Source: Escherichia coli (GTDB lineage Bacteria; Pseudomonadota; Gammaproteobacteria; Enterobacterales; Enterobacteriaceae). From it: a DNA stretch of 64,000 nt. The stretch lies in assembly GCF_044647545.1 (NCBI RefSeq), contig NZ_CP172818.1; one strand, given 5' to 3'. Both the position numbers and the translations under genes were made by a program. Positions 29,339 through 31,235 of this stretch are shown here, piece after piece; the first letter of the stretch is position 1; each line of letters opens with the position of its first letter. Under the pieces are notes generated by a model that did not search any database, had not been told where the DNA came from, and was given only the letters and a program-made list of their open reading frames with translations.

Positions 29339-29575
29339 ATGTTGCAACGTACGCTGGGCAGTGGCTGGGGAGTGTTGCTGCCAGGATTGCTGATTGCAGG
29401 GCTGATGTATGCGGATTTATCGCCGGATCAGTGGCGGATTGTCATTCTGATGGGATTAGTATTGACGCCGGTGATGCTGTATCACAAACAGTTACGGCAT
29501 TACGTTTTGCTACCATCGTGCCTGGCGCTTATTGCTGGCATCATGCTGATGATAATGAATTTGAATCAGGGATGA
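29339..29575 (+). CDS. yjjZ: small membrane protein YjjZ (DUF1435)
   Basis: 78 aa from MLQRTLGSGWGVLLPGLL; two hydrophobic segments. Confidence 0.75.
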   Translation: MLQRTLGSGWGVLLPGLLIAGLMYADLSPDQWRIVILMGLVLTPVMLYHKQLRHYVLLPSCLALIAGIMLMIMNLNQG

Positions 29576-29613
29576 AAAATCAAGGAAGAAACAAGAAAGG
29601 AAGTAAAGATAAT

Positions 29614-29700
29614 TGGTGCGAGGGGGGGGACTTGAACCCCCACGTCCGTAAGGACACTAACACCTGAAGCTAGCGCGTCTACCAATTCCGCCACCTTCGC
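29614..29700 (-). tRNA. leuV: tRNA-Leu (anticodon CAG)
   Basis: 87-nt reverse complement matches GCGAAGGTGGCGGAATTGGTAGACGCGCTAGCTTCAGGTGTTAGTGTCCTTACGGACGTGGGGGTTCAAGTCCCCCCCCTCGCACCA. Confidence 0.9.
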
Positions 29701-29734
29701 ACAGTCATCTTACTTTTTTTGATATCGCCTCGTT

Positions 29735-29821
29735 TGGTGCGAGGGGGGGGACTTGAACCCCCACGTCCGTAAGAACACTAACACCTGAAGCTAGCGCGTC
29801 TACCAATTCCGCCACCTTCGC
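29735..29821 (-). tRNA. leuP: tRNA-Leu (CAG), variable-arm variant (GTGTTCTTACGGAC instead of GTGTCCTTACGGAC)
   Basis: Same 87-nt tRNA with a single C-to-T change; pairing preserved as a G-U wobble. Confidence 0.85.
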
Positions 29822-29849
29822 CCAGTGCGAGCAATATCAACGTGGTTTT

Positions 29850-29936
29850 TGGTGCGAGGGGGGGGACTTGAACCCCCACGTCCGTAAGGACACTAACACC
29901 TGAAGCTAGCGCGTCTACCAATTCCGCCACCTTCGC
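29850..29936 (-). tRNA. leuQ: tRNA-Leu (anticodon CAG)
   Basis: Third tandem copy, identical to the first. Confidence 0.9.
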
Positions 29937-30084
29937 ATACCATCAATTCTTAAAAAGAATTGCTACCACGGAGGCGCATTCTAGTGGTTTTCAGCTTTTC
30001 GTCAATAGTTAATTATCGCCGGAGGTGTAATTGCTGGAAAAATGTCCATCAGGAAACTAGCGTGCAGGTTTGGTAGGCATGCGG

Positions 30085-30190
<106 letters not shown>

Positions 30191-30203
30191 TTCGGCGAGA
30201 TAA

Positions 30204-31235
30204 TTAACCTTTCTTCGCCTGGCGGGTCATAATGGCGCGATACACCTTGAAACGCCCGGTTTGCGCAATCACTTCATGGAAGCCAAATGTCTCATCCAGC
30301 ACGTCCGGGTAAGGCAGGAAGGCGTTCGCTACAATTCGCAGCTCGCCGCCGCTATTAAGATGACGCACCGCGCCGCGAATCAGCGTTTGCGCCGCATCCA
30401 GGCTGGTTTGCATCCCATCGTGGAACGGCGGGTTGGAGATGATCATATCAAAACGACCTTTCACCTCGGAAAAGACGTTGCTGGCAAAGACTTCACCTTC
30501 AACACCGTTGGCCGCAAGTGTTGCGCGGCTGGCTTCTACCGCTGGCGCAGAGACATCGCACAAGGTGAGACGAATTTTCGGCGAATGGCGCGCAAAGGCA
30601 ACTGAAAGCACACCCGCGCCACAGCCGACATCCAGCACTTTACCTTTCGTGTGCGGGGTTAACGTCGAGAGCAGCAACTGGCTACCGACATCCAGACCGT
30701 CGCGGCTAAACACGCCAGGCAGCGTTTTGACCGTCAGGCCATCGACGCTGTATTCGCCCCAGAATTTATCGGCATCAAATACCGGCTGTTTTTCCAGACG
30801 ACCAAAATAGAGGCCACAGCGACGAGCGCTGTCGACTTTATTCAACGGCGCATAATCTGCCAGCATCTGCTCGGCGCTGCGCACGCCGCTGCGGTTCTCG
30901 CCAACGACAAAAATATCTGTCCCCACTGGCAGCAGAGAAAGTAAATTCATCAACTGGAACTGGGCTTCCGGTTTGTTCTTCGGCCAGTAGTAAATCAGCG
31001 TATCGCAATCTGCGACGTCATCCACCGTGGCGACCAGACTGAAACGGGCGTTATCCCCCATCTGGCGGCTTAATACCTGCCAGTGGTGGAATTGCTGGGT
31101 ATGAGCACGGCTGGCCGCGGTATCTAAACGCGCGGGCAGGTCATCCTGTAAGTCTCCGGCAAACAGAATACGGCTTTGTTCGAAATCATCACTGTGACGC
31201 AGCAAGACTTCACTTGCCGGGGTAAATGCAGACAT
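30204..31235 (-). CDS. rsmC: 16S rRNA (guanine1207-N2)-methyltransferase
   Basis: 343-aa ORF with SAM-binding motif [11 protein letters not shown]; recognised as RsmC. Confidence 0.9.

Follow-up and report, generated by a model that had tools for sequence, protein, structure and literature searches.

The window, by which we mean the whole 64-kb stretch of Escherichia coli DNA analysed here, contains exactly three tRNA genes according to ARAGORN, all of them tRNA-Leu(CAG) genes on the minus strand. They form an array at 29614-29936, which lies between yjjZ and rsmC and is transcribed in the order leuQ, leuP, leuV. The first gene, leuQ (29850..29936, minus strand; ARAGORN and Rfam), and the last gene, leuV (29614..29700, minus strand; ARAGORN), carry C at gene position 48 (29889 and 29653, respectively), and the middle gene, leuP (29735..29821, minus strand; ARAGORN and alignment), is a U-type isodecoder. 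A 28-nt spacer separates leuQ from leuP (29822..29849, minus strand; AAAACCACGTTGATATTGCTCGCACTGG in RNA sense) and a 34-nt spacer separates leuP from leuV (29701..29734, minus strand; AACGAGGCGATATCAAAAAAAGTAAGATGACTGT in RNA sense), each being specific to its position in the array. Upstream lies rsmC (30204..31235, minus strand), a 343-aa open reading frame annotated in K-12 as the 16S rRNA m2G1207 methyltransferase, which served as the synteny anchor. The convergent downstream neighbour is yjjZ (DUF1435; 29339..29575, plus strand), for which the K-12 annotation was transferred by offset. The three tandem genes, their 28- and 34-nt spacers and the matching flanking reading frames identify the locus as the leuQ-leuP-leuV operon. 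The genes are identical to leuQ (b4370), leuP (b4369) and leuV (b4368) of K-12 MG1655.

A consensus scan predicted a sigma-70 promoter upstream of leuQ (29978..30005, minus strand; 10/12 matches), composed of TTGACG, a 16-nt gap and TAGAAT, followed by the G+C-rich stretch GCGCCTCC. No intrinsic terminator was predicted downstream of leuV on the minus strand, which agrees with the Rho-dependent end reported for the leuQ-leuP-leuV transcript, a polycistron that RNase P cuts into single tRNAs (PMC2190699). The 3' trailers quoted in that study, CCAAAAACC and CCAAACGAG, are the same as in the window. All four tRNA-Leu(CAG) genes of E. coli are highly expressed (PMC8510543). Between the predicted leuQ promoter and rsmC, we observed REP-like palindromic sequence within 30040-30200. 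The leuQ-rsmC intergenic region is 267 nt long in K-12 and in the window, about 189-199 nt in O55:H7 RM12579 and FHI_NMBU_03, and 290 nt in Nissle 1917.

Alignment of the three 87-nt genes revealed a single variable column at gene position 48, where leuQ and leuV have C and leuP has T. The plus strand accordingly has A at 29774 in leuP and G at 29653 and 29889 in the other two genes. A previous reading of the DNA from its sequence only had described copies 1 and 3 as identical and copy 2 as carrying a C-to-T change in the variable arm, and our alignment agrees on both points; the variable-arm string that it quoted, GTGTTCTTACGGAC, is found in leuP. The variant base (29774, minus strand) lies on the 5' side of the variable-arm stem and pairs with G55 (29767, minus strand; cloverleaf evaluation) in the hairpin GU(C/U)C-UUAC-GGAC, so that the C-G pair of leuQ and leuV becomes U·G in leuP. 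The linear position 48 used here is not Sprinzl position 48 but belongs to the e-numbered variable stem, roughly e12:e22 in our own approximate numbering. On an imposed cloverleaf, the folding energy changed from -33.2 kcal/mol for the C-type to -30.3 kcal/mol for leuP, a loss of about 2.9 kcal/mol with which the stem can still form. The isolated variable-arm hairpin went from -3.7 to -0.8 kcal/mol. The cloverleaf values are nearest-neighbour estimates that leave out modifications and tertiary contacts, and they were compared on an imposed structure, the unconstrained minimum-free-energy fold giving no cloverleaf for either allele.

The features of a bacterial type II tRNA-Leu(CAG) are present in leuP, namely a CAG anticodon and a long variable arm with a stem-loop. 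The discriminator A73 (A at linear position 84) and the terminal CCA are encoded in leuP as in its sisters. ARAGORN scores were equal across the three copies, and so were those for Rfam RF00005, each copy reaching 48.5 bits (gathering score 29) over model positions 1-71 of 71. The earlier description of the change as a structurally tolerated C-G to U-G wobble is thus borne out by the 48:55 pairing, the equal Rfam scores and the predicted fold. Comparative data support the same pairing: two genes carry U48-A55, the middle copy of Yersinia aldovae and the leuT orthologue of Serratia sp. Ag1, and C48-A55 was found in none of about 209 relatives from the matches listed, which also supports the classic path from C-G through U·G to U-A. 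We also considered whether leuP might be a tRNA pseudogene or a degenerating copy. This reading was rejected because its Rfam score equals that of its sisters and its sole change replaces a Watson-Crick pair by a wobble pair; the conservation of the U state in orthologues across genera contradicts it as well. Elsewhere in the molecule, one acceptor-stem pair is mismatched in all three genes, A5·C79 (29817 and 29743 in leuP), and Rfam marks it as non-canonical. The same pair is A-U in Serratia-type, G·U in Morganella/Xenorhabdus-type and U·U in Yersinia-type genes, suggesting that this acceptor-stem position is rarely Watson-Crick.

The sequence-only reading had named the locus as leuQPV and proposed a comparison with reference genomes. 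A BLAST search of 5,426 complete E. coli genomes placed the window in E. coli. Positions 29560-30000 of the window are identical at 441/441 nucleotides to MG1655 (NC_000913.3, 4606025-4606465), including the T in leuP. The one-nucleotide difference between leuP and leuQ/leuT/leuV in the variable arm has already been reported (PMC12472396), and a tRNA-seq preprint groups (leuP) apart from the identical set (leuQ leuT leuV) (bioRxiv 10.1101/2020.02.21.958157). The T in leuP is therefore the standard, reference and previously described allele of E. coli, and an ordinary one. It is no error, no new allele and no sign of an oddity of this strain. The previous view of it as unusual does not hold, since T is both the reference and the majority state of leuP and the difference is on record in these two publications.

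To estimate how common the allele is, we searched 5,426 complete E. coli genomes by BLAST with a leuP-specific 90-nt query comprising the leuP-leuV spacer and the 3' part of leuP with the T. The hit counts suggest that the low-complexity filter hides both the G8 run and the A/T-rich spacer, which would leave just 40 nt around the variant for seeding and make the T query and the corresponding C query allele-specific. A T-type leuP was found in 4,845 of the 5,426 genomes (about 89%), with 3,380 of them at 100%. The allele specificity of the query was checked on three retrieved matches below 100%. Two of these are T-type leuP genes that depart from the query by an SNP in the spacer or by one base in an A run. 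The third derives from an array of two genes, C-T, whose T-type member has the downstream flank of leuV, and this array appears from its flanks to be a product of unequal crossing-over. Within its own spacer context, leuP carries C in 138/5,426 genomes, and a single gene occupies the locus in 425/5,426. Searches at E <= 1e-30 that require the exact flank, and hence give lower bounds, found a T-type leuV in at least 58 and a T-type leuQ in at least 49 of the 5,426 genomes; a T-type leuT, likewise with exact flank, was found in at least 5 of 5,402. No T-type gene is present anywhere in 581/5,426 genomes, about one tenth, a number that fits the 138 arrays with C at leuP and the 425 single-gene arrays, together with a C-type leuT. 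The existence of these 581 genomes indicates that the U form is dispensable.

The departures from C-T-C take several forms. C at leuP is found, for example, in O55:H7 strains and in ETEC H10407 and B7A, the array of O55:H7 RM12579 being C-C-C. The T has reached an adjacent gene in Nissle 1917 and ATCC 25922, which have C-T-T, and in FHI_NMBU_03, which has T-T-C. Single-gene arrays are exemplified by SRCC 1675, whose FhuF and YjjZ protein accessions are the same as those of O55:H7 RM12579, and by the K-12 laboratory strain ME8067. The one- and two-gene arrays are consistent with unequal crossing-over between tandem genes. Some of the single-gene arrays may, however, reflect assembly collapse, as suggested by a Nissle derivative and a K-12 laboratory strain when set against their sister assemblies. 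The array sequences show that copies are exchanged in both directions, and that genes within the tandem array take part in this more often than the distant leuT does, yet C-T-C remains the norm.

These frequencies bear directly on whether the T could be an assembly or sequencing artefact of a collapsed or mis-polished tandem repeat. Short reads resolve tandem 87-bp repeats poorly, and at least one MG1655 assembly (NZ_CP025268.1; genes at 513-836 of the extracted locus) departs from the MG1655 reference at the leuP site, showing C-C-C and an 88-nt leuV with a run of nine C. Because of this 9-C run and the disagreement with the reference, we suspect that this assembly was mis-polished, probably at the homopolymer; the C8 run of these genes is a documented indel hotspot (PMC8510543). 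In this example the error would have removed the T. Collapse would likewise erase the difference and not create one at a single reproducible site. The same T in the same spacer context recurs in the K-12 reference and in the 4,845 independent complete genomes, and it is present in the orthologous gene of many other genera. For a single base, reproducibility in other genomes is the test of reality, and the T passes it overwhelmingly; chance is not at issue. We therefore regard an artefact as having almost no probability, and the previous judgement that the T is a real allele stands. Where assemblies disagree at leuP, the suspect version is the one without the T, and assemblies with three identical leu genes at this locus, or with only one, merit more suspicion than those that keep the T.

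We then considered arrays in other species. A scan of species representatives that looked for the variable arm of the T-type, with either G or A accepted at position 55, returned at least 120 loci; as it detects a locus by a T-type gene and would pass over all-C arrays, its cross-species frequencies are biased. All named records among the scan matches listed belong to Enterobacterales. When every tRNA-Leu(CAG) gene was extracted from the scanned loci, the C-T-C order was found in at least 17 arrays. Among the matches listed, these include arrays of E. albertii, Salmonella enterica arizonae, three Citrobacter, Klebsiella oxytoca, Raoultella, Pseudocitrobacter, Phytobacter, Pseudenterobacter and three Serratia. 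Further orders among the matches listed are CTT, TTC, TTT, CCT and TCC. From Escherichia to Serratia, C-T-C is shared gene for gene.

The surroundings of the arrays were compared as well. RsmC is encoded beside the arrays in dozens of Enterobacterales loci (tblastn, among the matches listed), with identities ranging from 98% in Escherichia down to 55% in Proteus and Morganella. The two spacers are unlike each other, and each is conserved by position across Enterobacteriaceae and recognisable in Serratia; the leuQ-leuP spacer, in particular, is conserved from E. coli to Klebsiella and still recognisable in Serratia. Upstream of the arrays, the hexamers of the promoter and the GC-rich stretch hardly change from Escherichia to Serratia and Pectobacterium, with GCGCC or TCGCC as variants of the stretch and TAAAAT as the hexamer in one locus (L008). 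The linkage to rsmC, the position-specific spacers and the conserved promoter hexamers with their GC-rich discriminator together indicate that the arrays are orthologous. As these orthologous arrays share C-T-C, the U of the middle gene is an ancient, orthologous state and not the outcome of a recent change. Across Enterobacterales, TTGACG and TAGAAT followed by GCGCCTCC (or TCGCCTCC) stay nearly constant upstream of the array, even though the leader around them does not.

This comparison also decides against a recent, strain-specific C-to-T mutation in copy 2 still awaiting homogenisation, which is how the previous reading had seen the direction of the change. C-to-T transitions are the commonest substitution, and stems tolerate U·G. 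However, T is the majority state across E. coli and is found in the orthologous middle gene of E. albertii, Salmonella, Citrobacter, Klebsiella, Raoultella and Serratia, so that U is the old orthologous state of the middle gene. Moreover, position 48 is not a reported hotspot in mutation-accumulation lines, in which the hotspots are the C8 run and an adjacent A:T pair (PMC8510543). A recent mutation is therefore scarcely conceivable. The sharing of C-T-C gene for gene among these genera also runs against the earlier expectation that such tandem copies are normally homogenised, and more generally, tandem bacterial tRNA genes need not be identical.

The distant fourth gene behaves differently among genera. 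The K-12 leuT is C-type (1607-1693 of its extracted locus, L128), and the solitary T-type genes found away from the array belong to argX-hisR-leuT-proM operons, in which they are the leuT orthologues. Among the matches listed, leuT is U-type in Citrobacter, Klebsiella, Raoultella, Enterobacter, Serratia, Yersinia and Morganella. E. coli is unusual only for its C-type leuT, a gene that is usually U-type in the other Enterobacterales listed.

The persistence of both forms raises the possibility that U- and C-type tRNA-Leu(CAG) are functionally distinct and that selection keeps both in Enterobacterales. The two forms could differ in how stable they are, in their processing or modification, or in their susceptibility to a nuclease or phage factor. 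Of the 53 multi-copy arrays from many genera among the T-containing matches listed, 43 are mixed at position 48, and any other position differs within only five of them; because these arrays were selected by their T, mixed ones are over-represented. Positions 5, 61:75, 77 and 79 differ between genera and are uniform within almost every array, so that the dimorphism at position 48 either survived the process that made these positions uniform or re-arose after it. The C-T-C order is kept on both an E. coli-type and a Serratia-type backbone (61:75 being G-C or A-U, and 77 and 79 being C or T, respectively), and many genera have a U-type leuT orthologue. Against selection, no functional difference between the forms has been documented, and E. 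coli LeuRS takes no account of the variable arm (PMC9976931). The 581 E. coli genomes without a U-type gene, among them the 425 with single-gene arrays, argue in the same direction, as do the all-U (TTT) arrays and the CTT, TTC, CCT and TCC arrays, which imply that no arrangement is obligatory. We therefore consider functionally distinct forms kept by selection unlikely, and a balanced, selectively maintained isodecoder pair across Enterobacterales very unlikely. If such a pair did exist, the U·G form would serve some purpose besides decoding, possibly through its stability, its processing or the fragments made from it, or by evading a nuclease or phage factor with specificity for the variable arm. 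Infection with phage T4 reportedly cleaves host tRNA-Leu1, possibly near the variable arm; this background was not used as evidence, and our search of the literature on this cleavage as a role for the U/C site found nothing usable.

Considering these data together, the most plausible explanation is that the middle gene is leuP of leuQPV, and that its U48 is the normal allele, very probably that of an old, effectively neutral isodecoder that is rarely exchanged between copies. The three genes would be transcribed as one precursor from the predicted, conserved promoter of stable-RNA type and separated by RNase P. Thereby leuP would yield a tRNA-Leu(CAG) isodecoder with U·G in place of C-G in the variable-arm stem. 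The leucine identity of E. coli tRNA resides in A73 and the tertiary core (A15-U48, G18G19, A20a); neither sequence nor folding of the long variable arm correlates with leucylation, and tRNAs without the arm are still charged (PMC9976931). As LeuRS ignores the variable arm, and leuP has the same anticodon, A73 and tertiary-core nucleotides as its sisters, LeuP is expected to be charged with leucine. With these identity elements untouched and the genes co-transcribed and highly expressed, we take LeuP as a working isodecoder. The U form would decode CUG like its sisters, and we infer that the difference is effectively neutral.

The history of the array would then be as follows. The middle gene was probably already U before the Enterobacteriaceae and Serratia lineages split. 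Since then, exchange between the copies, by gene conversion or unequal crossing-over, has occurred in both directions, but rarely. Exchange may be rare because only 87 bp of identity are shared between unrelated spacers, which would offer little homology for conversion, so that the difference would be kept in most lineages; this cause of slow homogenisation is our inference and matches the low frequencies of converted arrays in E. coli. The uniformity of the rest of the gene within arrays indicates that the homogenising process has not removed the C/U difference. Such long persistence of C and U departs from simple neutral drift with conversion and leaves room for selection. The C/U site, mixed in orthologous arrays across genera and with occasional conversion or collapse in E. 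coli, thus poses a small question of tRNA evolution.

The array in the window can finally be placed among known systems. Compared with leuQPV of K-12 MG1655, it has the same sequence, flanks, spacers and promoter and the same T at position 48 of leuP, and no difference was detected in the operon; a K-12-like genome is 99.2% identical to the window over 29500-30100, the slight differences lying outside the operon. With the C-type genes leuQ, leuV and leuT of E. coli ("tRNA-Leu1"), leuP shares 86/87 nt and the same anticodon, discriminator and core, and it differs in having U (U·G) at position 48 where these carry C (C-G). Unlike the genes of leuQPV, leuT belongs to a separate operon, argX-hisR-leuT-proM. 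The rsmC-linked arrays of other Enterobacterales occupy the same site and have the same promoter hexamers, position-specific spacers and, often, the C-T-C order, but some differ in order and in the backbone positions 5, 61:75, 77 and 79. On concerted evolution among the tRNA genes of E. coli, our literature search brought up no work that deals specifically with leuQPV. The rRNA operons of E. coli reportedly evolve in concert by gene conversion, with copies overwriting one another, and the occasional CCC, CTT and TTC leu arrays would be the same kind of event. In contrast to the rRNA operons, the leu array offers only 87 bp of identity between unrelated spacers, exchange among its copies appears rare, and the difference in its middle gene persists across genera.
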